Both the position numbers and the translations under genes were made by a program. DNA of 64,000 nt from Candidatus Mcinerneyibacteriota bacterium (GTDB taxonomy: Bacteria; Macinerneyibacteriota; Macinerneyibacteria; Macinerneyibacteriales; DSCS01), in NCBI GenBank assembly GCA_016937175.1, contig JAFGWL010000056.1, positions 25,685-89,684 on the forward strand. Direction: 5' to 3'. Of the stretch, positions 1 to 16,881 are shown piece by piece (the first letter of the stretch is position 1; every line of letters starts with the position of its first letter). Under the pieces are notes generated by a model. It saw nothing but the letters and a program-made list of their open reading frames with translations, was not told the DNA's origin and did no database searches.

Positions 1-987
1 CCAGGGGCAGGCCCGGCTCCAGAAGACAAGATAGACATACTTTCCCCGATAATCCTCAAGACGGCGGGTCTCTTGTGAAAAGATCTCCTTCCCCTGGAAG
101 GGAGGCGCTGTATACCCTACCTGGGCGGCGAGGAGAGGTTCACCGACAGGCTGTTTTTCCAGCATGACTGTCATAGCACCGGTATCGACCCCGTTAAAGC
201 GGTAATGATCCCCCAGCGCAAAAAGAAGGTTTCCTTCAGTGAAATCCTCATAAGCTTCGGAATTTTCAAAATAACGGAATGTCGGGTAGTCAAAATCCAG
301 GCCACCCCCGGGAAAGATTATGAACTTTCTCCCGAGAAAAGTCCCTTCTCCTCTGAAGAAGGCTGTCCACCCCAGAGCCTCCCCATTCCAATCCATAAAC
401 CTGAAGGGTATGGTCAGGGTACGGACTTTCCCGTTAAGTTTTGCTTCCACACGGACGTCCACGCAAGCATCTCTTTTCTCTTTTTCAGAGAGTTTGTCCC
501 ACTCTTCGTGTGTCAACAGTTTGACAGGAGCATTATTGGAAAAATCGTGGTCATTGTCAGAATCAATGAGATAACGGGTAACCCCGGCCTCATCCTTCCC
601 TCTCATCACATAAAAATAGCAGCGGATAAACTCCTCTGAAAGTCTTTGACTTAGCGCCTTGTCCGGCTCTCCTTTGAAATAAAAATCAAAATAGTCTTTG
701 TCGATGATTCCTGCATGATAACTTTGATACCTGAACTGGTCATAATTCATGACCACTTCTTTTACCATGACATCGGCCCAGTTTTCAGGGACCCCCTTCA
801 CCTCTTTTTTCATCTCTGTCCAGGGATACCCCTCATAATCGGGACGCCAACCAAGGCCCCCTGTCATCGTTTCCGCCTGAGCCTCGTGATACCCTGTCTT
901 GAACTTGAACGTCACTTCTCCGTTTTGAACACCGCAGGATACAAGAAGCAACCCCGCGGCCAGCAGAATCCCAAACCCTCGTCTCAT
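1..987 (-). CDS. Lipoprotein, 3' end beyond window start. Signal peptide with lipobox LVSC; C-terminus ends ...GKYVYLVFWSRACPW, suggesting a TlpA/thioredoxin-like fold
   Basis: I translated the minus strand from ATG 987 to position 1 with no stop. GGAGG sits 5 nt upstream of the ATG. N-terminus MRRGFGILLAAGLLLVSC is a lipoprotein signal. The track omits this ORF because no stop lies in the window. Confidence 0.6.
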   Translation of the reverse strand, partial: MRRGFGILLAAGLLLVSCGVQNGEVTFKFKTGYHEAQAETMTGGLGWRPDYEGYPWTEMKKEVKGVPENWADVMVKEVVMNYDQFRYQSYHAGIIDKDYFDFYFKGEPDKALSQRLSEEFIRCYFYVMRGKDEAGVTRYLIDSDNDHDFSNNAPVKLLTHEEWDKLSEKEKRDACVDVRVEAKLNGKVRTLTIPFRFMDWNGEALGWTAFFRGEGTFLGRKFIIFPGGGLDFDYPTFRYFENSEAYEDFTEGNLLFALGDHYRFNGVDTGAMTVMLEKQPVGEPLLAAQVGYTAPPFQGKEIFSQETRRLEDYRGKYVYLVFWSRACPW

Positions 988-2843: not shown

Positions 2844-3902
2844 TTATCTGATCTTCATAGAAAAGATGCCGGAGGCGAGGATGAGGCGCCGTAATACCCT
2901 GTTATACATAAAGGGAAGCTTTCTGTTCTTAAGCCAGATATTAAACTTCAGTGCGGCTGTCTTTTTTCGATAAACTTTCTGAAAACAGGGAAAATTTGTA
3001 TTGATACTTTCAGCCAGCAAAAGACCGCTTTTGATCGCATAACTGATCCCTTCAGCTGAACTGGGGCTGATGAAGCCTGCCGCCTCACCTGTGAATGCGA
3101 CTTCACCCCTATGTGTCCTTATACTTTTCATGTCCCGGGGCCTGTTGATGAAAGCACTCTCTTTTTTAACAGGCTCTCCGGTAATCAGCCCTTCTCCTTT
3201 GAGCCGGTCTAACAGCCCCTCAAATTTCTGTCTGGCCTCTTCCCCGGGTGGAAGAGCACTCCCCACAATCAGATGACCGTTTTTCTGAATTATCCATGAA
3301 TAAAAATCAGTCACCGTGCGGTCAAATATCGAAGTATAAAAGGGGCTTTCCCGTTGAGTCATAAACCAGTATTGCAAGGCCAGATAAGAGGCCTTTCCGA
3401 AAGCGGGATCCGCCTGGCGCCTGACACGCGAAGCCGCTCCGTCAGCTCCCACCAGGATCTTCGTCCGGGCTTCCGAAATGACCCCCTTTTCACGGTACTT
3501 GATTACGAGCCCCTTTTCGTCTCTTTTGTAGGAGAGAAACAGAGTATTGAATTTTTTTTCTGCATGTTCGGGAAGAGACGAACAGAGCCAACGGTCGAAC
3601 TTTTCCCGGTCGATATTGATATAATAACGCTGATAATAGCGCTCCAGGCCGTGGTCTCTGTCAATGGTGCGTACGCTGAAGAGCTGAGGCCCTGTCAGAA
3701 CCTCGCCGGGGATACCGAGCCCAAGACGTCCCAGGATATTCTGGGCATCAGGTGCCAAAAGCCCGCCGCAGCACTTGTTCACCAGAGGAGGCCATTCATC
3801 CAGATTCCTTTTATCTATGAGCAGGACACGGTATTGCTTATCAAGGAAGCGAGCCAGAGAGGCCCCGGACGGCCCCGCACCGATTATGACCACATCATAC
3901 AC
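2844..3902 (-). CDS. FAD-dependent oxidoreductase (geranylgeranyl-reductase / halogenase-like Rossmann family)
   Basis: GTG start followed by VIIGAGPSGASLA (GxGxxG dinucleotide-binding motif). 352 aa. AAGGGGGA SD. Confidence 0.7.
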   Translation of the reverse strand: MYDVVIIGAGPSGASLARFLDKQYRVLLIDKRNLDEWPPLVNKCCGGLLAPDAQNILGRLGLGIPGEVLTGPQLFSVRTIDRDHGLERYYQRYYINIDREKFDRWLCSSLPEHAEKKFNTLFLSYKRDEKGLVIKYREKGVISEARTKILVGADGAASRVRRQADPAFGKASYLALQYWFMTQRESPFYTSIFDRTVTDFYSWIIQKNGHLIVGSALPPGEEARQKFEGLLDRLKGEGLITGEPVKKESAFINRPRDMKSIRTHRGEVAFTGEAAGFISPSSAEGISYAIKSGLLLAESINTNFPCFQKVYRKKTAALKFNIWLKNRKLPFMYNRVLRRLILASGIFSMKIR

Positions 3903-3980
3903 CCTATTCCCCCTTTACAACTCACTGGGAGCATTGTAGGGGAGATCCCGAAGGGTCTCAACCGATTTCTTCTTTTTTTT

Positions 3981-4178
3981 TCAGACAGTATCAGTTTTTC
4001 TCTGAAGATGATCTCCTGAAGCAGTATTCTGCCTCATATCCGGCCCCGCAAGAATCAGAAGCCATCCGAAAGGGCCCAGAAGAAAAGAAAAAAAAGCTCC
4101 TGCCCCGGCACGCCCTTTTCTATCACCTATGAGGGCCCCGATCAGGATAGTCACAACAGCGATAATATAATACTCCAT
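3981..4178 (-). CDS. Small membrane protein (65 aa, 2 predicted TM helices)
   Basis: GGAGAGGG SD. Two hydrophobic helices. Confidence 0.5.
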   Translation of the reverse strand: MEYYIIAVVTILIGALIGDRKGRAGAGAFFSFLLGPFGWLLILAGPDMRQNTASGDHLQRKTDTV

Positions 4179-4254
4179 TTCCCTCTCCGCTCAACTTTTC
4201 AAACGCTTTCAGATTATTCAAATTCTTTTTTCACCAGGGCAGGGAAGCCGATGG

Positions 4255-4950
4255 TCATGGGGTCGGCTCACCGGCCTCCTCTTGCCTTCCATGCATGGGA
4301 TGCATGGCTGTCAGGATCCAGGCTTTACAAAGGAGGTGAACAGCCTTTTCGATCCTTGATACAGGGCTCTTTGACTTTTCAAGAATGATCTTCAATTCTT
4401 TATCTTTGAAGGCCTGCGGGTGAAGTTCGCAGATCTTCCTCATCCTTTGTCCGGATCTGCCGGTATACGAGACTTCCACCATGTATCGCCCGGCAGACTG
4501 ATCAAGGGCGTAGAGAAGAGTCTCGGCGTCTTCAGGCCCTCGCAGAGGGAGGTCGACTGTTCTCTTTTCTGTGAGGGAGGACAGAGCAGCCTGGCTCACG
4601 ATCTCAATATCTTCCAGGATATATTGAAAGACCACTTTTACATCCACCAGTCTGTCCATTTCCGGCGGCTGCAGCTCCAAACGCACAAAAGCCCCTATTT
4701 TTCCGGTCTCTTCTTCCCGTGTGAAAAAGACCTTTTCTCCGCTTAGCTTCAGGTCCCCGGGAATGACCAGATTTTTTGGATTACGGTCATGATATTGTCC
4801 CCTGACATATGACCAGGCGTAGTTGAGGGCTGTGGCCCAGAGGAGAATTTCCACAATAAGGGAAGACCAACGATCAGCCCCGTAATAGATATTGACAATT
4901 ATCAATCCTGATAAAAGAGCCATCACTGTTATGACTTTAATTTTCTCCAT
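4255..4950 (-). CDS. Hypothetical membrane protein (2 N-terminal TM helices plus cytoplasmic domain)
   Basis: Internal start MEKIKVITVMALL preceded by AAGGGGGGG SD (C7 tract on plus 4948-4954). The track N-extension to 5067 lacks an SD. Confidence 0.55.
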   Translation of the reverse strand: MEKIKVITVMALLSGLIIVNIYYGADRWSSLIVEILLWATALNYAWSYVRGQYHDRNPKNLVIPGDLKLSGEKVFFTREEETGKIGAFVRLELQPPEMDRLVDVKVVFQYILEDIEIVSQAALSSLTEKRTVDLPLRGPEDAETLLYALDQSAGRYMVEVSYTGRSGQRMRKICELHPQAFKDKELKIILEKSKSPVSRIEKAVHLLCKAWILTAMHPMHGRQEEAGEPTP

Positions 4951-5090
4951 ACCCCCCCTTTGGGCTTTCCTTTCAAATTTCTGACATTTCACCTCTTTAT
5001 TGACATAATCGGATCCCCGATAAGGAACCGTAGTATTATCGTAACATACCGACCGGTCTTTTGCCACTATTTTTTTTCCTTCTTTTCTCC

Positions 5091-5204
5091 GTCAGTCCCA
5101 TAACCTCTTTCTGTTATTCCCATCCTTCTCCCTCTTTTCCGGCCTCTCTTCCAGGTTCACGATGACAGCCAGGATAATCATTATGGCCAGAATAAGTTTT
5201 TCCA
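5091..5204 (-). CDS. Small hydrophobic peptide (37 aa) MEKLILAIMIILAVIVNLEERPEKREKDGNNRKRLWD, type I toxin-like architecture
   Basis: Perfect AAGGAGG SD 6 nt upstream of the ATG. Single TM helix plus charged tail. Below the ORF-track length cutoff. Minus-strand TATAAT at 5256-5261 upstream. Confidence 0.45.
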
Positions 5205-5450
5205 TTACAGGGCCTCCTTAATTGCGACAAACCGTTCCGCGGCTCTCTCATGATTATTATAAAAACAGGCAGAGGGTTAGTTAAGACAGCAAAATGAATT
5301 TGATTTGGTTCCCATTACTATTTTAATCAATTATTATATTTGTAGTTAAATTAGATATACATGTATTCAGGTTCCCAATCAAGGAACTGGTGATATTCTT
5401 TTAGGCCTGTATGTTGTAGGCTTTCAGCCGGCATCCCTAAAGTGAAGCGA

Positions 5451-5477
5451 GAAAAAGGGAGAATATATTATTCTCTC
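5451..5477 (-). terminator. Rho-independent terminator overlapping the stop codon of the giant gene
   Basis: 9-bp stem gggagaata/tattctctc (one G-U pair), loop tat, followed on the minus strand by UUUUUCU. Confidence 0.5.
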
Positions 5478-8400
5478 TCCAATGGAATACGGCCGCTGAT
5501 AAGGAACGAATGATAGATTTTTTCAGCGATCATGGTTCCCAGAAGCTGGAAATAGGAGCTGTCAGAAGCTACCGAATAACGGTCGGAATCGATCCTTAGG
5601 TAGACGGAAGCTGTCGTCCTCTTGTTCAAATCCACTCTCCGTATCAGATCTCCTTTCTCTTCATCACCCGGGAGAGCCGGATCCGTGATCAGACGGCTGC
5701 TTTCTCCCTGCAATCCCAGACAATAAATATCTTCTGATACGTCCAAAACAATAAAAAATGAGCTGGCATGGAAGTAAGTGACCAGCAGGTCAAAGATCTG
5801 CCTGACCATGGCCTCCGGCCCGGTGATGGGTCGGATTTTTTGCGCCAGGTCAAAAACAGCATCGATCTTCTCACTTTCTCTCACAGGATCCCGGAGAGGT
5901 TTCGCTTCCTTCTCTTTTTCCCTGCGCTCAGGGACTCCCCGGATATAAACGGTTCTGTTTCTCCCGCTCTCTTTGGCATAGTAGAGGGCCTCATCTGCTT
6001 TGGCTACGAGCTCTTCCAGAGCCTTTCCGTCATCGGGGTAGAGGGCATAACCTATACTGCATGTCAATTTATAATTCTGGTTCAACACGGAATTTTCAGT
6101 GTTCTTCCGGACCCGGTCAATGATCTTTTCTCTGTCGGCATCTCGGGGTATGATCATGGAGACACAAAACTCTTCTCCTCCATACCGTCCCACAAAGTCA
6201 CTCATGCGGACAGTCCCCTTGACAATACGCCCCATCTCTTTCAGGACCGAGTCCCCTCGTGAATGGCCGTAGGTATCGTTGATATTCTTGAAATGGTCCA
6301 GGTCCAGAATGGCGATGAGAACCTGCTGTTCAGACTTATCGGCATAATCCAGCATATCCTGTGTAAGATTTATCCAATGCTCCCTCTTATAAAGGCCTGT
6401 GAGCCGGTCAAGAAGAGCTGTCCTCTTCAAATAATCATAGTATCCCGCTGCATTGATAAAGTCCCGGAAAGGGCCTAACCCTTCGGTGATTTCTTTGTCA
6501 GGATAGAGGAGAAGACGAGTCGTATCCAGGTAGAGACACCCTCTAAGAGCAAAGTAGTGAAAACTTGATTGCCTGTTTTCCCGTGTTTTGCTTTTTCCCC
6601 GCCCCAGTTTTTCAATATCCAGTACGGGAATGATCAGGATCCCCGTCAGGTTCCGTCCCTGCCTCTTCTCTTCCCGGTGATAGAAGATATCCCTATGGGC
6701 CTTTTCAAAAAGGATCTCATTCAGAAGGTCCCGCCTCATGGGAACCGGAACATGATACCGTCCTTCTTTTTCGATCACAAGTTTCTCTGTCCAGCCCGAA
6801 TAGAGGTCATATTCGAAAAAGCCCCCCCGTGTCATCCCTGTGATATCCATAAGGTCCACGAGGATCGACTTATAGAGCCCTGTCCCCTCATTGACCGGAG
6901 ATAGCTGGTAATCCTCCAGAGCCTTTCTCTTGCTCTCTGCAATCATCTCACGGGCGAGATCACGGTGGGCCTCTCTGAAGAGATCGGGCCGGTCAACCAC
7001 CGGGTCGATGCCATGCTTTTTCAGAAGGCTTGCATGAAAAGCCCATTCTTTGTTTTGTTCCATGAAGGAGGTTCTGTACTGTATGGGGACTGTATTAAGC
7101 CACTCTTTCATTTGGGTAAAGAGGTCCAGGAGGACATCATAGAAGAGAGCTGTCCCCTCTTCATGCTTCTCAACAAGAAGATGAAGTGTATAAAGCATCT
7201 GAGAAGATCTGTAAAAGGGTGCAGCATAAACCCTTTCCAGTGCCTCTTCACTTCCGAGAAAAGCTCTGAGGAGGTCGGAGCGGTTCTTCTCCTCTCTCTC
7301 CTCGATTTCAAAACCTTTTCTCTCAAGAGTATCCAGAAAGCGGACAGCCAGGTCTTTATCTCCCGAAAGCCAGGCCTTCTCCGCTCCATGAAGAAGGAGT
7401 GTGCTATAATGCTTTTTATCTTCTTCTGCAGAGTACCGGCGCAAAATAGCATCCATCTCCTTTTCCATGGCTTTCAGCCCCGCTTCCTCTGCCCGGGCTG
7501 TGAGAGAGACGACCAGGTATTCCACGCATTCTCGAAGAGAGGGACGGTCTTCAAAAAAGGCCCCTGCTTCTTTCAAAGCGGCCCGGGCCCGCTCATGGTC
7601 TCCCAGTTCAAACAGAAGGTCTGCCAGCAGGAAATTCATCTTAGCCCCCTCGCGGACCCCTTTTTCGTCTCCCAAATAATCAAATCCTTTGCTGATGACA
7701 TCATAGGCTTTGTCATAGTAATGGAGTGTCTTGTAGGCTTGGGCTAAATTCATTGTATTGATGGTAGCTGCATGAAAGAAATGGATCCGTTCTGCTGCCC
7801 TGACAGCACGGATCCAGGAAGAAATGGCCTCTTCAATTTCGCCCCGGTCGATGTTGACGATCCCTGTGTTGGTGGAAACGATGGCGATAAGCCTCTGATC
7901 GTCCAGGCGCTGGGCTATCTCCAGGGCTTTTTTGAAATATTCATGGGCACGGTCGACCTCTCTGGCCCTTCGGTAGGCGATGGCTCTTGCGTTATAAGCA
8001 TTGAACTCTGCATCTAAAGAGATGTGTTCCCGATTTTTTTCGACGATTGAAAGCATCTGCTGGGCTGTCTCTTCCATTTTTTTATTGTTCTGATTATCCA
8101 TATAACTTATCATAAGCTCATTAAGGAAGAGCGATTTCCGGTTTTCGTCAAGTCCGTCGATCATCTCCCTGAAGCCGCAGACCATCTCTTCGACTCTATC
8201 ATATTCACTTTTTGTGACATAAAAGACCAGAAGGTTGTAAAAAACAGTCCCCCATTCTTCCGGGTGATCTGCCGGCCCTTTCTCGATAAATCCCATGAGT
8301 TCCTTTATATCCTCTTTATCCCCGTTGGACAGGATGACAAGCCGATAACTCTTGTAAAGGGTCTTTAACAAAGGAGTATCCGCAAAAGCCTCCATCTGGG

Positions 8401-10243
8401 AGAGGACGACATCTTTGCCGATGAAACGCTGAAAATCATGCCGATATAATACCTCATAGAGTTTGAAGAGATTGACTCCCGTCAGGTTTTGAGCAGAATT
8501 ATGGATCTGGGAAAACAGGTTATAGAAAAAGCGGTGATGGACCGACTGTTCCCTGACACCCATCATCAGATAATGGCTCATGGCCTTGTGATAAGCCTCG
8601 GCGCCGAATCCCGTGTTCAGTGCCAGATAGACGAAGGTTTCAAGATAGGAAAGCTCCCGGAACCCGTTCTCTTCAAAATAATCCAGGACAAGACGGGCCA
8701 GAGCGGGGTCGACTTTTTTCTCCCCGGTCTCTATCAGGGAGGAGAGACGGAATACATAGAAGAGTTCATCCCGATAGGCCACATCCTGCTCCTCCAGAAC
8801 CGCCAGGGCTTTTTGCAGAGAGACGGGAGCCTTTTCAACAAAATCCTGAGGGATCTTTCCACCCATAGCCCGTCCCAGAGCCAGAGCCTCTTTCGTATCC
8901 TCCTCTGTTTTCCCCTTAAAAGCTGCGATACTGATTCCGGTGCAAAAACACCCCTGCGTCCGTGGAAAAGATCCCCGGGCTTCGATAAGCTTAAAACATT
9001 CCTTATCAGCTGCCTTACACAGGCTTTTCCTGACCAGGGAAGGCTCTCCCCCGCTCTGGTCCAGAAGCTCCTTAACGGCTTCTTGCATGTCATCAACGAA
9101 ATAATAGTAGTAATGAAGCACACGTGCGGTTTCTTTTTCATCCAGTTTCGCCATGGTCAAAGGGAACATTCCGGGAAGGGGCCTTCGGTTCCAGGCTACG
9201 ACACGGAGGTCTTTCGGTTGAAAACGCCTGGAAAGATAAGTCAAAAACCGCATATCTTCTTCAGACAGCTCCTCTCCTCTGCCCAGGCCTAAAAGGGCCG
9301 GGCCCGAGGCGACTTTATTTTCCAAAAAACGGATTGCTTTGGCACGCATCTCTTCAGGGGTCCTCGCCACAGACTCCCGGCCCTCTTCTTCAGACCGGCC
9401 CAGGTATTTTATGATCCCTTCTGCGAGGGAAGCCTTCTCCTCTTCCAGCCCGAAATACTCATACCCTTTAGCCTGGATCAGGGGGATAAGGCCCTGATAC
9501 CAGAGACGGGCATTTTCTTCAGAAGCATAATCATAAACGGTTGTGAGAGACTCCGTGGTTTCCAATAGGGAGATCTCTCTCTCTGACAGGATCAAGGCTC
9601 CCGGGAAAGGGGTCGAGCAGGCATGGCCCTGAATAAAGTCCCTCTGAAGGCTATCAGAGATCACTTCGCGATGAGGAAAATAGAGCCGGAGGTCTGGTAC
9701 ATCTTCGTCAGAGAGTTTGTATCCTGCTTCATTCATCAAACGGGTAAAGGCCATCAGGTCCGCTCGGCGGCCCATATCGATATCGACATAAAGCGGGCTC
9801 ATATCAAAAAAGACAGGGTTCCTTTTTGTATCCCTCAAGGCATTGCTTTCACGGAGATCCCCGTGGTAAGTCCCGTTAGCATGAAGAAAAGAGATGAGAG
9901 AAAAAAGGCTGTTGATCAACATCTCTTTGTTCTCCGGGTTCATTCGAAAAAGCCCCGGCATCTTATCAGCGATATAAAAAGAGCGGGAACTGTCTGTGTA
10001 ACGGCCGTCTATACTCGCCAGGGTGTGAAAAGAGCGGATAGGCCGCAGAAGTGGATGCCTGTAAAGAGAGGTAACCATATATTCTTTTGTCAGAAGGTCC
10101 TTTTGGAATTTTTCTTCAGAAACTGTTATTTTGAGGATAAGCTCTCTTTTTGGGAAAAAAAGGTCGCCTGCTTCATAGACGATAAAATTATTGTTTTTAT
10201 TAAGAAGTTTTTTAATCGTAAAGCGTCCGTTGACCAGTTTCAT
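5468..10243 (-). CDS. Giant multidomain signalling protein (1591 aa): degenerate protein-kinase-like N-terminus, possibly degenerate STAND/TPR core, GAF-like region, GGDEF diguanylate cyclase (GGEEF) and a C-terminal GAF-like extension
   Basis: Kinase-like motifs HGDLRESNAL (catalytic loop) and FFDMSP (in place of DFG). TPR-like helical repeats. LDLDHFKNINDTYGHSRGD...RYGGEEF is a GGDEF domain. GGAG SD. Confidence 0.9.
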   Translation of the reverse strand: MKLVNGRFTIKKLLNKNNNFIVYEAGDLFFPKRELILKITVSEEKFQKDLLTKEYMVTSLYRHPLLRPIRSFHTLASIDGRYTDSSRSFYIADKMPGLFRMNPENKEMLINSLFSLISFLHANGTYHGDLRESNALRDTKRNPVFFDMSPLYVDIDMGRRADLMAFTRLMNEAGYKLSDEDVPDLRLYFPHREVISDSLQRDFIQGHACSTPFPGALILSEREISLLETTESLTTVYDYASEENARLWYQGLIPLIQAKGYEYFGLEEEKASLAEGIIKYLGRSEEEGRESVARTPEEMRAKAIRFLENKVASGPALLGLGRGEELSEEDMRFLTYLSRRFQPKDLRVVAWNRRPLPGMFPLTMAKLDEKETARVLHYYYYFVDDMQEAVKELLDQSGGEPSLVRKSLCKAADKECFKLIEARGSFPRTQGCFCTGISIAAFKGKTEEDTKEALALGRAMGGKIPQDFVEKAPVSLQKALAVLEEQDVAYRDELFYVFRLSSLIETGEKKVDPALARLVLDYFEENGFRELSYLETFVYLALNTGFGAEAYHKAMSHYLMMGVREQSVHHRFFYNLFSQIHNSAQNLTGVNLFKLYEVLYRHDFQRFIGKDVVLSQMEAFADTPLLKTLYKSYRLVILSNGDKEDIKELMGFIEKGPADHPEEWGTVFYNLLVFYVTKSEYDRVEEMVCGFREMIDGLDENRKSLFLNELMISYMDNQNNKKMEETAQQMLSIVEKNREHISLDAEFNAYNARAIAYRRAREVDRAHEYFKKALEIAQRLDDQRLIAIVSTNTGIVNIDRGEIEEAISSWIRAVRAAERIHFFHAATINTMNLAQAYKTLHYYDKAYDVISKGFDYLGDEKGVREGAKMNFLLADLLFELGDHERARAALKEAGAFFEDRPSLRECVEYLVVSLTARAEEAGLKAMEKEMDAILRRYSAEEDKKHYSTLLLHGAEKAWLSGDKDLAVRFLDTLERKGFEIEEREEKNRSDLLRAFLGSEEALERVYAAPFYRSSQMLYTLHLLVEKHEEGTALFYDVLLDLFTQMKEWLNTVPIQYRTSFMEQNKEWAFHASLLKKHGIDPVVDRPDLFREAHRDLAREMIAESKRKALEDYQLSPVNEGTGLYKSILVDLMDITGMTRGGFFEYDLYSGWTEKLVIEKEGRYHVPVPMRRDLLNEILFEKAHRDIFYHREEKRQGRNLTGILIIPVLDIEKLGRGKSKTRENRQSSFHYFALRGCLYLDTTRLLLYPDKEITEGLGPFRDFINAAGYYDYLKRTALLDRLTGLYKREHWINLTQDMLDYADKSEQQVLIAILDLDHFKNINDTYGHSRGDSVLKEMGRIVKGTVRMSDFVGRYGGEEFCVSMIIPRDADREKIIDRVRKNTENSVLNQNYKLTCSIGYALYPDDGKALEELVAKADEALYYAKESGRNRTVYIRGVPERREKEKEAKPLRDPVRESEKIDAVFDLAQKIRPITGPEAMVRQIFDLLVTYFHASSFFIVLDVSEDIYCLGLQGESSRLITDPALPGDEEKGDLIRRVDLNKRTTASVYLRIDSDRYSVASDSSYFQLLGTMIAEKIYHSFLISGRIPLERE

Positions 10244-12141: not shown

Positions 12142-15100
12142 TCAAGTATCCTCTTCTTTTTGAATGGTATGAAAGGATGCTAAAAAGACCTTTTCACTGA
12201 TAATATTCCCCAGCATCGTAAAAAAACGTTCATCCTGCTGAAAAGAATAGCGGTCCGATCCCATCTCCAGATAGACCGAAACACTGTAATGTTCATGGAT
12301 GGAATAGGTATTCAGCCTGGCTCCGCCTAACCCCCTGTCAGACTCCATCTCTCTTTTGCCCACCCCCTGGGCAGAGGCTTTTTTTTCGTAATAAATAAAG
12401 TGACTGTTCCCGCCCATGAGAATTCCCAGACGTGTAGCTTGGAAAAGGGCTACGAGGATATCATAAATATCCGAAACGACCTCTTCAACAGGCATAAAGG
12501 GGTCGATCTTCTCTTCAATGCCCAGCAAGGCATCCAGCTTCTCTTTCTCCCGGACAGGGTCATCGATAGCCTTTTTATTGTTTTTCTTTTCTCCCGCTGC
12601 ACTCGCCGGCATGGTCTCATAGGCGATGGTCACATTTCGTCCGCTCGATTTTGCATAATAGAGAGCTTCATCGGCCTGTCCCAGCAGAGAGTCTAAAATC
12701 TCTGCATCCCGGGGATAGAGGGCATACCCTATGCTGACGGTCAGGTTGAACTTTTTGTTCAGGGCCGAACTCTGTACATTCGCCCGGATCCGGTCCGTGA
12801 TACCGGAATAGGAAGCTTTCGGGGGAACCATCATGGCCAGGACGATCTCCTCGCCTCCATAGCGTCCGACGATATCTGAGGCTCTGACTGTCTCTTTGAT
12901 AATAGCACTCACTTCTTTTAAAACAGCATCTCCCCTGGCATGGCCGTATCTGTCGTTAATATTCTTAAAATGGTCGATATCAAGGATGGCTATGATCACC
13001 TGCTGGTCATTGTTCAAAGCATATTCCATGAGTTTTTTGGTCAGATTGATCCAGTGTTCCCTTTTATAAAGGCCCGTAAGCTTGTCCATGAGAGCCGTCT
13101 GTTTCAGGTAATCGTAATAGCCTGCGGCATTGATGTAATCTCTCAGGGGGCCCAGCCCCTCTGTGACCTCCGCGTCAGGCACCAGCAGCATCCTGTCGCT
13201 GTCCAGATAGATACATCCCCTCAAGGCAAAGTAGTGGTAGCTTGACTGGCGCTTATTGTCTCCCCTGTATTTATTGTGTCCCAGTTTTTCTATGTCAAGC
13301 ACCGGGATCACCATGACAGCACTGGCAGAAGAACCTTTTCTGGCCGGTTCACGGCTGAAATAGACATCCCGATGGGATGATTCAAAAAGGACCTCGTTGA
13401 TCGCCTCTTTATAGACAGGAAGAGGTGGATGATATCCGGTCCCCAGGTCCAGAACCACTTTATGCTGCCACCCTTCATACATGTCATACTCATAATAGGC
13501 TGCCCGGGTCATGCCGGTGATCCGGATCAGGTCTTTCAGAATGGACCTGTAGAGATTCTCACCTTCACTCATGGGAGACAACCTGTAGTTTTTCAATGCC
13601 CGTTTTTTCTCTTCCCGGATAAAACGCCGTGCTGTCTGCTCATATTCCTGACGAAATGAGTCCAGATGAAATTTTTCGGACTCATACCCCTGTTCCCGGA
13701 GGAGCTTACTGTGGAAGCGCCATTCAGGATTCTTCTTTTTAAAGGAATCCCTGTATTGATAAGGGATATGCGCCAGCCAGCGGCTCATGATAGAAAGAAG
13801 CTGGGCACAATATTCCAGATGCAGTGCATTCTTCGTCTTCTCTTTTCGGATAAGAGCGTTAAGGACAAACATGGACCTGGAATACCCTGTAAACTCCCCC
13901 ATCCCCTCTTCATCAAACTCCCTCTTCTCTCCGCTGAGAAAGAGGATGACATCCATCATCTTCCTGTCCCCCGGCTCCAGGGTCTCCAGGGAGCCGGAGT
14001 CGATTTTTTTTACATAGTCAGCTGCATCCTGATAGTGGCCTGCACATAGGAGCTGAAGGGCAGCGGTCAGAAGGACGATACTGTAATAGGCCTGGTCTTC
14101 AGCGGAAGAAAAACGTGAAAAGAGGCCTTCGATAAACTCGTCCATGGACTTCTTCCCTTCTGCCTGGAAGAGAAGAGCGATTCTGACGTCGAAATACTCA
14201 TAACTTACTTTTAAAGCGCTCCGTTCTTCATAAAAGGGGGCCGCTTCCTTCAAATGGGCTTTAGCCTGTTGATAATCCCCCAGTTCCATAAGCATATCCG
14301 CATAGAGAAGATGAAGCTTTGAATTTTCCCGGAGTGTAGGAGCTTCAGCCAGGTAAAGCTCTATTTTTTTAAAGGTCGACAGGGCTTGCTCATACTGATG
14401 GAGAAGTTTGTAGACTAAAGATAGGTTGATCGAGTTTGTAACCATTGAAAAATAGATCTTTGCCTGCTCAGCAGCTTTCACTGCGCTTGTCCATGAGGCC
14501 GTACAAGCTTCATAATCTCCTGAATAGTAGTGTATGACACCGATATTAGTTGCCACAATAGCTTCGTAACGATAGTTCTCCAGGATCCGTGCGATCTCAA
14601 GTGCTTTGTTATAGTGGACCAAAGCCTCCGGAAGACGTCCCTGTCTGCGGAGAACGATGGCCAGATTGTTATGGCTGCTGAAGTGGGCATCCAGCCCTGT
14701 TTTCTCTCCTTTTTTTCCAACGATCTCAATCATGGACCGGGCTGTCTCCTGCATCTTTTCAAGATCCATCTTATCCATATAACAGGAAAACATCTCATTC
14801 ATGACCATGACCCGGTTTTCATCGTTCAACGATTCGATGGGCTTTTTATATTTCTCCATGAGCTGTTCCATCTCTTCATAGCGGCCGAGGAATTTCAACT
14901 TCAGCAGGACATGCCGGAGAACGAGGGCCCAGGTATCCTTCTCCTTCCGGTCATAAGCATCCAGAAAAGGGTACATCGCCCTTACATCATCCAGAGTCGC
15001 TTTATCATCCAGAGTCAGCTTAAAAGCCTTTGTGACCTGCTTCTCTCGTTCCGTCCGCCCCTCTTTCTCCAATTTTTCCAACAGGAGGGAATTGTCATAG

Positions 15101-16881
15101 ACATGATTGTGATCCAGCTTCAATAAGTTCAGATAGAGGTCAAAGGAGTTTCCCCCTTTCATCTCCCCGATATTTTTTTCAAAGGCCCGGAAGAGGCGAA
15201 AAAAGAGGACACGGTTCAGAGAACGCTCCCTTTCGCTCAACCGGTTGTAAAAAGAGAGGATCTTTTCGTAAGCTTCTTCCCCCTGCCCGGTGTTTAGCGA
15301 ATAAAAGACATAGCTTTCAAGATAAGCCTTCTCCTGAAATGCAAGTCTTTCCAGCTCATCATACAAAGGACGTTGATCCGTCGTCGTAAATTTTTGTCGG
15401 ACAAGATCGCCGGGGATCCTGTTCAACCGCAGGATGAAGAAAAGTTTGTCCCGGTAAAAAGCTTTCTCTTCCATGAGGTAGATAAGGGCCTTTTTTTCTT
15501 CAGAAGAGAAGAAATCGAAAAAAGAGGAAGGTATCTTTCCTCCCATGGATCGGGCCAGAACCACCACATCCTCTACGGCTTTTCGCTCAGAGCCGGGAAT
15601 CTCCTTTAAGGAAATGGAAAAATCGAAACTCTCTTTCCCCTTATCCAGCGAGACAGTCCCGTTTTTGAATATAAGAGACTCTCCTGCAGCCATTTGACGG
15701 ATAAGCCTAAGAAGGAGGGATGGCTCTCCTTCCGACTGACGCCACAGGGTCTTCGCGGCCTCTTCATCTTCGTTCAGATAAGGAATATAATACCGGAGGA
15801 CGCGACAGGATTCTTCTTCTGTCAGAAGCGGGCAGGAGAGGTTTTCAAACTCTTCAGCAGGCTCGCGCTGCCAGATGAAAAAAGAGATACGATTGTTTTC
15901 AAAATGGTTCGCAATCTTTCTGAGCAGGCTAAGGTCATCACGGCTCATGGATTCTGCCGCTCCCAGCCCAATGGCCACAGGCCCATACCCGGCTGCATCT
16001 TCAAGAAAGCTCAGGAGCCCCTCTTCTCCGTCTGCGCCATTGACTGCCGCTGTAAGCCTCTGAGAAAGGGGTTCCGGGCCTTCTGCCCTGTAAAGCTCGA
16101 TCCCCTCAGCCTGGATAAGAGACAAGACCGCCTCATACCAGATACGGGCATTATCAGCACCACGATAATCATAGATCACCGTCACCGGCTGTATAAAAGT
16201 GAGCCCGTCCGGGGTTCTTGACTGTATAAGTCGTTCAGCTGGGAAGGGAGTGGCCCTGATATGCTCCAGTGCCACAGCTTTAACGTAATCATCCGAGATA
16301 AGAGAACGGAAACCGGGCAGCGAGAAGAGCTCCGTTGCATCCTCTTCCCTGAAGGGAAACCCGAGAGACCTCAGTAACTCAGCAACGGCTTTCATATCAT
16401 TTTTCTGTCCCAGGGCATTATTCACATAGAGAGGGCTCATATCAAAAAAAAGAGGAAGCCCCTGGCCGTCAGCCAGGATATTGCTTTCCCTGAGATCTCC
16501 GTGATAAGCTTCATTTCTGTGTAGAAACCCTAAAAAGACATAAAGGGCACTGATTAGGGTTCCGGCCTTCTGCTTGTCGGCCTGGAAAAGCGAGGGATAT
16601 TTGTCGGCTATATAAAAGCAACGGGTTGTATCAGTGAATCGACCGTCGATGGTCCGCAAAGGGTGAAAGGAATCCAGGGGCCGAAGCAGCGGATGTCGGT
16701 TCAACAGGCCGGCAAGATATTCCTTTCTCAGAAGATCAGTCTGAAAACGTTCTTCCGAAGCCGTGACCTTCAATATCTTCTCTTCGCCCGGAAAGAGGCG
16801 GTCGACCGCTTCATAGACGATGAAATTGCTGTTCTCATTCAAAAGGGTTTTGATTTCAAAGCGGCCGTTGAATAGTTTCAT
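12142..16881 (-). CDS. Giant multidomain signalling protein, paralog of 5468..10243 (1579 aa): kinase-like N-terminus, TPR/STAND-like core, GAF-like region, GGDEF domain with variant motif GGEEI
   Basis: N-terminus MKLFNGRFEIKTLLNENSNFIVYEA is near-identical to its paralog. HGDLRESNIL and FFDMSP motifs. RYGGEEIVLAMM in the GGDEF domain. Confidence 0.9.
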   Translation of the reverse strand: MKLFNGRFEIKTLLNENSNFIVYEAVDRLFPGEEKILKVTASEERFQTDLLRKEYLAGLLNRHPLLRPLDSFHPLRTIDGRFTDTTRCFYIADKYPSLFQADKQKAGTLISALYVFLGFLHRNEAYHGDLRESNILADGQGLPLFFDMSPLYVNNALGQKNDMKAVAELLRSLGFPFREEDATELFSLPGFRSLISDDYVKAVALEHIRATPFPAERLIQSRTPDGLTFIQPVTVIYDYRGADNARIWYEAVLSLIQAEGIELYRAEGPEPLSQRLTAAVNGADGEEGLLSFLEDAAGYGPVAIGLGAAESMSRDDLSLLRKIANHFENNRISFFIWQREPAEEFENLSCPLLTEEESCRVLRYYIPYLNEDEEAAKTLWRQSEGEPSLLLRLIRQMAAGESLIFKNGTVSLDKGKESFDFSISLKEIPGSERKAVEDVVVLARSMGGKIPSSFFDFFSSEEKKALIYLMEEKAFYRDKLFFILRLNRIPGDLVRQKFTTTDQRPLYDELERLAFQEKAYLESYVFYSLNTGQGEEAYEKILSFYNRLSERERSLNRVLFFRLFRAFEKNIGEMKGGNSFDLYLNLLKLDHNHVYDNSLLLEKLEKEGRTEREKQVTKAFKLTLDDKATLDDVRAMYPFLDAYDRKEKDTWALVLRHVLLKLKFLGRYEEMEQLMEKYKKPIESLNDENRVMVMNEMFSCYMDKMDLEKMQETARSMIEIVGKKGEKTGLDAHFSSHNNLAIVLRRQGRLPEALVHYNKALEIARILENYRYEAIVATNIGVIHYYSGDYEACTASWTSAVKAAEQAKIYFSMVTNSINLSLVYKLLHQYEQALSTFKKIELYLAEAPTLRENSKLHLLYADMLMELGDYQQAKAHLKEAAPFYEERSALKVSYEYFDVRIALLFQAEGKKSMDEFIEGLFSRFSSAEDQAYYSIVLLTAALQLLCAGHYQDAADYVKKIDSGSLETLEPGDRKMMDVILFLSGEKREFDEEGMGEFTGYSRSMFVLNALIRKEKTKNALHLEYCAQLLSIMSRWLAHIPYQYRDSFKKKNPEWRFHSKLLREQGYESEKFHLDSFRQEYEQTARRFIREEKKRALKNYRLSPMSEGENLYRSILKDLIRITGMTRAAYYEYDMYEGWQHKVVLDLGTGYHPPLPVYKEAINEVLFESSHRDVYFSREPARKGSSASAVMVIPVLDIEKLGHNKYRGDNKRQSSYHYFALRGCIYLDSDRMLLVPDAEVTEGLGPLRDYINAAGYYDYLKQTALMDKLTGLYKREHWINLTKKLMEYALNNDQQVIIAILDIDHFKNINDRYGHARGDAVLKEVSAIIKETVRASDIVGRYGGEEIVLAMMVPPKASYSGITDRIRANVQSSALNKKFNLTVSIGYALYPRDAEILDSLLGQADEALYYAKSSGRNVTIAYETMPASAAGEKKNNKKAIDDPVREKEKLDALLGIEEKIDPFMPVEEVVSDIYDILVALFQATRLGILMGGNSHFIYYEKKASAQGVGKREMESDRGLGGARLNTYSIHEHYSVSVYLEMGSDRYSFQQDERFFTMLGNIISEKVFLASFHTIQKEEDT

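Follow-up and report, generated by a model that had tools for sequence, protein, structure and literature searches.

A 37-codon open reading frame of Candidatus Mcinerneyibacteriota as the founder of a putative lineage-specific family of small single-pass membrane proteins

A small open reading frame (ORF) lies on the minus strand of a contig from Candidatus Mcinerneyibacteriota, in the spacer between a giant gene and a gene for a 231-aa protein. The locus raises the question of whether so short a frame is a gene and, if it is, whether the product is a type I toxin, as a preliminary description had proposed, or a small membrane protein of another kind. The window analyzed here is the whole stretch of 64,000 nucleotides that contains the frame. 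In the ORF list of the window, the frame (MEKLILAIMIILAVIVNLEERPEKREKDGNNRKRLWD) runs over 5092..5205 and is made up of 37 codons and a TGA stop. The preliminary description had the strand right, with coordinates (5091-5204) that are off by one. It had also recognized the Shine-Dalgarno (SD) sequence AAGGAGG, which is present at 5219..5213; the gap to the ATG is 7 nt (ccctgta) and not the 6 nt given there.

Within a single genome, an ORF with such an SD is no more than chance would provide. The window has 20 occurrences of AAGGAGG where 20.3 are expected, and 71 ORFs of at least 20 aa in the ORF list overlap 3000..8000. These numbers favor a reading in which the frame is a chance ORF within a conserved regulatory region or a non-coding RNA. 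That reading and the alternative of a true gene make different predictions for related loci, and the analysis is a comparative sequence analysis on metagenome assemblies.

The sample is composed of 21 syntenic loci in four clades. Loci L001-L009 and L011-L016 are contigs from metagenomes together with one genome bin, and were reached via homologues of the protein encoded downstream of the small ORF. Loci L017-L022 carry group P0008 and were added by a phmmer scan with the peptide against 1.84 billion representative proteins. The giant GGDEF protein encoded upstream, used as the anchor in a contig search, retrieved no relatives. Identity of the downstream protein to the copy in the window is 86-90%, 59%, 56%, and 56% in the four clades.

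The small ORF is intact in all 21 syntenic loci, in the same place and with the same stop position. Its length is 37 codons, or 38 in clade 4. The position of the start codon is fixed across clades, and the codon itself is ATG, TTG, or GTG. Identity between clades is 61-71% over the ORF, 36-56% over the 5' UTR, and 32-40% over the upstream spacer, and AAGGAGG never varies within the otherwise diverged 5' UTR. The conservation of frame, length, start, stop, and SD across the four clades is well beyond chance. The preliminary description had named loss of the reading frame in relatives as the result that would count against a gene, and the frame is kept in 21/21 loci.

The substitutions are those of a coding sequence. 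Over the 21 loci and four clades, the small ORF occurs as 8 nucleotide alleles that encode 7 peptide variants. Between clades, pS is 0.60-0.96 (saturated) and pN is 0.15-0.28, and the differences per codon position in one example are 10, 4, and 19. The excess of synonymous changes over random placement has a binomial P of 2.3e-6 for L003 against L005, 4e-4 for the window against L005, and 1e-2 in a further comparison. Other frames across the ORF are interrupted by stops or lack a consistent start. One frame on the antisense strand is open across it, but is poorly conserved and lacks a start. Two alternative ORFs, a 45-aa frame at 5114..5251 and a 27-aa frame at 5351..5434, were rejected, as neither is conserved. 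The pattern indicates purifying selection on the peptide sequence along its whole length, including the C-terminal motif described below.

From this evidence, the small ORF is very probably a real protein-coding gene. The reading as a chance ORF in a regulatory region or non-coding RNA can also point to the want of a testable Rfam match: searches of the whole window, and a permissive run on 4700-5700, gave nothing relevant. Against it stand the coding pattern of substitution, the start, stop, and length kept in four clades, and the lack of a conserved RNA structure. It is extremely improbable.

The frame had been called unannotated, and this is indirectly supported. The exact peptide is missing from a collection of 15 billion proteins that includes the neighbor protein from the same MAG, and look-ups of identical sequences returned no record for the peptide or for its variants. 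Among the relatives, gene callers treat the small ORF inconsistently. It is called correctly in L006 and has no call at all in L001. N-terminally extended calls are found in L002 (1373..1516, 47 aa), L003 (9705..9872, 55 aa), and P0008 (54 aa), and begin within the promoter or the 5' UTR. In L005, a 57-aa call in the wrong frame (9770..9943) replaces the small ORF.

The peptide has two parts of constant length. The hydrophobic stretch (L4-L18 in the window) is exactly 15 residues in every clade, with a mean Kyte-Doolittle value of 3.2-3.3, and is preceded by an acidic residue near the N-terminus. An Asn near its C-terminal end (N17 in window numbering) is invariant. The tail is exactly 19 residues in every clade, is 63-68% charged with a net charge of +1 to +4, and closes with an invariant K-x-[LI]-W-[DE]. 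AF2 predicts a single helix over residues 2-36, with pLDDT of 82-90 over residues 1-20. One transmembrane (TM) helix followed by a highly charged tail was the build first proposed, and hydropathy and AF2 agree on an N-terminal hydrophobic helix and a charged tail; a stretch of 15 residues is short for spanning the membrane fully. The positive-inside rule predicts a cytoplasmic tail and an N-terminus on the outside.

The peptide belongs to no family in the collections searched. Five peptide variants run against Pfam with E up to 10 gave insignificant matches only (YxzE 0.096, SIT 0.086, PsbP_2 0.16), and NCBIfam and PADLOC gave no match. A profile search for wider relatives returned P0007 only, the phmmer scan of 1.84 billion representatives returned P0007 and P0008 only, and no member of the peptide family was found in the viral contigs searched. 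The peptide family is narrow in distribution and confined to the four clades. The possibility that the peptide is a duplicate of the first TM helix of the neighbor protein was considered, as both start with MEK and end with ..VN, and was rejected; the two show no sequence similarity (hhalign probability 0.3%). As judged from the aligned loci, the small ORF is the founder of a small, lineage-specific family of predicted single-pass membrane proteins in Candidatus Mcinerneyibacteriota and close relatives.

The features of the locus are collected in Table 1.

Table 1. Positions of the small ORF, its neighbor gene, and the conserved sites around them in the window.
Feature	Position	Strand	Remarks
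Neighbor gene, 231-aa lineage-specific protein	4255..4950	-	Downstream of the small ORF in 21/21 loci
Conserved block TGGCAA, 17 nt, TGtTACGAT (P2)	5038..5066	-	Extended -10 promoter-like; opposite strand reads TAACAT
Small ORF, 37 codons + TGA	5092..5205	-	15-residue hydrophobic helix (L4-L18) and 19-residue charged tail ending K-R-L-W-D
Shine-Dalgarno AAGGAGG	5213..5219	-	7 nt (ccctgta) before the ATG; invariant in 4/4 clades
ATCATGAG block directly after the -10 hexamer	5247..5254	-	From the alignment; nearly invariant across clades
Promoter-like P1, TTAACT, 17 nt, TATAAT	5256..5284	-	10/12 match; -10 block kept in four clades
Second GGGAAC box	5308..5313	-	62 nt downstream of the GGGAAC in the 3' arm of the palindrome; about -60 from the predicted TSS
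Palindrome GTTCC-N7-GGAAC	5371..5387	-	About 120 nt upstream of the predicted TSS

Upstream of the small ORF, conserved sites are arranged at fixed spacing. The minus-strand TATAAT reported in the preliminary description is there, at 5261..5256, and is part of the promoter-like P1. The -10 hexamer (TATAAT; TAAAAT in clade 4) and its surrounding block TGCTGTCTWWAC are kept at fixed spacing in four clades. The transcription start site (TSS) is predicted at ~5249, so that the 5' UTR would be about 44 nt long (44-47 nt across loci). The ATCATGAG block may be a repressor's operator that overlaps the promoter, or it may be conserved as the initial transcribed sequence. Clade 4 has two copies of AATAATCATG, with their starts 28 nt apart (L017 612..621 and 640..649).

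Farther upstream, the palindrome GTTCC-N7-GGAAC is complete in clades 1, 2, and 4, and clade 3 departs from it only slightly (GTTCA...GGAAC). Clades 1-3 align without gaps between the palindrome and the second GGGAAC box, and by eye the spacing in clade 4 agrees. The palindrome and the box look like transcription factor binding sites. Neither the palindrome nor the -10/ATCATGA block has further convincing sites in the window. Because the upstream boxes, the -10 block, and ATCATGAG are all held at fixed spacing, the alignment suggests that the region is a regulated promoter.

Downstream of the small ORF, on the same strand, lies the gene of the 231-aa protein. This protein has two N-terminal TM helices, a beta-sandwich, and C-terminal helices, and its length across clades is 219-246 aa. 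The copy in the window is 100% identical to the hypothetical protein JXR74_07315 of a Candidatus Mcinerneyibacteriota MAG. It has no family in Pfam, NCBIfam, or PADLOC, and none of 5.8 billion proteins belongs to its family outside the four clades. Conservation places its real start at ATG 4950, with a GGGGGG SD. The start at GTG 5067, given by the mechanical ORF list and by a 270-aa call (P0002), was rejected on the same ground. The spacer that holds the small ORF had been put at 400 nt, which is correct only with the GTG start; with the start set at ATG 4950 by conservation, the spacer is 517 nt. The terminator of the giant gene, placed just before the small ORF in the same description, was not found: no site there is terminator-like, and the only hairpin is a weak one of 5 bp that occurs only in the clade of the window.

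Between the small ORF and the neighbor gene, a scan found no terminator-like sites, and the conserved block P2 lies 45-85 nt downstream of the stop of the small ORF. The -10 hexamer of P2 varies (TACGAT, TATAAT, TATCAT, TATGAT, TACAAT), and T1, A2, A5, T6, and the TG extension are kept. In L005, the scan scores P2 as a sense-strand promoter, TGGAAA-17-TATGAT with TG. The block is best read as a promoter of the downstream gene, in an orientation inferred from these sites; with a core that is almost a palindrome, it may also act on the opposite strand. On the plus strand, a promoter-like CTGACA-17-CATAAT with a TG extension (4981..5009) lies antisense to the 5' UTR of the 231-aa gene. It points towards the small ORF and is conserved only in the clade of the window.

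A short frame on the same strand and upstream of the neighbor gene, with no terminator between the two, is also what would be expected of a leader peptide. In such an arrangement, the translation of the upstream ORF, and not its product, would control the downstream gene in cis. The amino-acid sequence of the small ORF, however, is under purifying selection throughout and has an invariant C-terminal motif. In addition, 141 nt and a promoter-like block precede the next start codon, and no conserved attenuator-like structure is found. A role as a leader peptide is very improbable.

The comparison with type I toxins has more in its favor. Such a peptide would depolarize or permeabilize the membrane, and its synthesis would be held down by an antisense RNA. 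Here the antisense RNA could start at P2 on the opposite strand, with TAACAT as its -10 hexamer, and overlap the 3' end of the toxin mRNA. Antisense overlap with the 3' end of the toxin mRNA occurs in fst/RNAII, txpA/ratA, and bsrG/SR4. P2 is conserved and promoter-like, and its core could be used on either strand, which is consistent with this arrangement.

The peptide also fits the descriptors of type I toxins, which call for <70 aa, a single hydrophobic helix, and an abundance of charged or bulky residues at the C-terminus (Fozo et al. 2010, PMC2887945). It has 37 aa and a single hydrophobic helix at L4-L18, though this is short for a full span, and its highly charged tail (63-68%) ends in K-x-[LI]-W-[DE], read as RKRLWD in the window. 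Fst/Ldr-type toxins (TisB, Hok, TxpA, BsrG) share this size and the one helix, their C-terminus is polar or charged and includes bulky residues, and they too lie in intergenic spacers and are missed by annotation (PMC2887945). The vertical inheritance of the small ORF is no argument against a toxin, because type I toxin loci are reported not to be horizontally spread (Fozo et al. 2010, PMC2887945).

The remaining evidence argues against a toxin. Pfam includes models of type I toxin families (Fst/Ldr, TisB, Hok, Ibs, ShoB, TxpA, and others), and the searches of Pfam, NCBIfam, and PADLOC placed the peptide in none of them. By tblastn, the 64-kb window and each related locus have a single copy, with no tandem repeat; tandem or multiple copies are frequent in type I toxins, though not universal. 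Flanking genes are close, at 262 nt upstream and 141 nt downstream, against the at least 400 nt and at least 250 nt asked in searches for type I toxins, a distance criterion that is a search heuristic and not a strict definition (Fozo et al. 2010, PMC2887945). At 19 residues, the tail is long for a class in which most members have short terminal extensions only (PMC12648545).

Signs of translational restraint by mRNA structure were not seen. The SD is perfect and largely unpaired, at 55-65% unpaired in six relatives when folded from the predicted, unmapped TSS. Folding z-scores of -0.9 to +1.7 make the predicted mRNA no more stable than shuffles. Conserved RNA structure is lacking as well, with consensus values of only -3.9 kcal/mol on the antisense strand and -5.9 kcal/mol on the other. 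A scan found no antisense promoter or terminator common to the clades, and P2 is the better promoter on the sense strand, where it has the TG extension, the conserved T1/A2/A5/T6, and a -35-like hexamer at 17 nt. An antisense promoter inside the ORF was discarded as evidence, because it occurs only in L005 and is built from conserved codons.

The small ORF differs from Fst/Ldr-type toxins in lacking homology, detectable antisense RNA signals, SD sequestration, and a structured mRNA. It differs further in being single copy, close to its flanking genes, without a terminator of its own, and co-oriented with a constantly linked neighbor gene. The label of type I toxin given in the preliminary description is not borne out by the family searches, the copy number, the flanking distances, or the RNA folding, and a peptide that damages the membrane under antisense control is improbable. 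A more specific form, a vertically inherited type I-like module in which the regulated peptide would be membrane-active and P2 would be the promoter of a convergent antisense RNA, is quite improbable. If this form were true, Mcinerneyibacteriota would gain its first described system of the type, and the peptide would stand for a new toxin family marked by a conserved K-x-L-W-[DE] end.

The other genes around the small ORF vary among clades. The upstream giant gene in the window (5468..10243, minus strand) encodes a 1591-aa TPR-GGDEF protein. The clade 4 locus has no giant GGDEF gene, and an M19 peptidase gene directly precedes the small ORF (L018 65..1693). Docking of the C-terminal tail onto the TPR region of the giant GGDEF protein was considered as a role for the peptide and is weakened by the clade 4 locus, where that gene is missing. 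In the window, the giant ORF is one of two minus-strand ORFs of ~1590 aa that lie close together (5468..10243 and 12142..16881). For the second, TPR-GGDEF is shown only for its 1575-aa counterparts in L003 and L005.

On the other side of the neighbor gene, a gene for a 65-aa membrane protein (3981..4178, minus strand) encodes two hydrophobic segments and the motifs GRAGAGAFFS and GPFGWLL. It is kept in clades 1 and 2 (60-95% identity) and absent from clades 3 and 4, and its product has no known family. Beyond it, also on the minus strand, 2844..3902 encodes a member of the geranylgeranyl-reductase family that binds FAD (NF008519, 386 bits). All four clades have a homologue downstream of the small ORF; that of clade 4 is a 125-aa fragment. 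From its family, this gene could tie the cluster to membrane lipid or prenyl quinone chemistry.

The only gene that adjoins the small ORF in all four clades is that of the 219-246-aa neighbor protein. The reading preferred here, which is given about an even chance of being right, is that the product, as a small membrane protein, modulates a larger one by binding to it, and that this larger protein is probably the constant neighbor. Binding a larger membrane protein is the general mechanism of bacterial small membrane proteins (PMC12648545). The peptide has the traits of the class, being below the limit of about 50 aa, with one hydrophobic helix and without a catalytic domain. The hedge of the preliminary description, that the peptide might be a small membrane regulator, fits the evidence.

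In the proposed sequence of events, the small ORF would be transcribed from its own regulated sigma-70-type promoter with conserved upstream boxes, and the transcript from P1 would probably read through into the neighbor gene. The peptide would insert so that its N-terminus faces outward and its tail the cytoplasm. It would then bind a larger membrane protein and stabilize or modulate it, as KdpF, CydX, AcrZ, and MgrB do, rather than act by membrane damage. The most likely target would be the adjacent 2-TM protein, and the conserved C-terminal motif would be the contact point.

The link between the two genes can be read in more than one way. The small ORF adjoins the 2-TM protein gene in 21/21 loci while other neighbors vary. 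This linkage is weak support for a partnership, because the four clades cover a narrow phylogenetic span; in clades so close, constant adjacency could be plain synteny and not functional coupling. The two genes also need not be co-expressed, since the conserved promoter-like block lies between them. An alternative is therefore a condition-induced small membrane protein with a target other than the neighbor, so that the adjacency would be inherited synteny. Candidate targets would be a sensor kinase, a transporter, or the membrane as such. The conserved promoter of the small ORF, with its operator-like upstream boxes, and the separate promoter-like block of the neighbor are consistent with such independence, and many small membrane proteins, MgrB and AcrZ among them, are encoded away from their targets (PMC12648545). 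Set against this, the small ORF and the neighbor are the only gene pair kept in four clades while flanking genes vary, and the two families share the same narrow distribution. Action on another target is a serious contender, if an unlikely one.

Under the preferred reading of a partner of the neighbor protein, the closest known systems are KdpF (29 aa) and CydX (37 aa). Like the peptide, they are single hydrophobic helices, within a range of 29-37 residues, and are conserved, often unannotated, and without catalytic function (PMC12648545). Their genes lie beside those of the larger membrane protein that they bind, as the small ORF lies beside that of its candidate partner (PMC12648545). In contrast, the peptide has no sequence similarity to either, and its tail is half of the protein, highly charged, and provided with a conserved C-terminal motif. 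The candidate partner is an uncharacterized 2-TM beta-sandwich protein and not a transporter or an oxidase. The small ORF comes first, with its own predicted promoter, and the partnership is a proposal from gene adjacency.

A second group for comparison is made up of MgrB, AcrZ, MgtS, and MgtR, which are single-pass peptides of about 30-50 aa. Their promoters are regulated, and they exert their effect by binding to a larger membrane protein. The peptide shares the size and the single pass, has no homology to them, and differs in that its target is proposed solely from gene adjacency.

Annotation routinely overlooks small membrane proteins, and outside model organisms few are known. In the relatives, the small ORF is variously missed, extended, or replaced by a call in the wrong frame. 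The small ORF represents a new family within a known kind of gene and leaves general concepts unchanged. Its signature is defined by a helix of 15 residues, a charged tail of 19, and a K-x-L-W-[DE] terminus. For a candidate phylum without cultured members, it adds a well-supported gene and is a clean gain in annotation. With a candidate partner and a conserved, apparently regulated promoter region, the locus may be taken as a concrete two-gene module.
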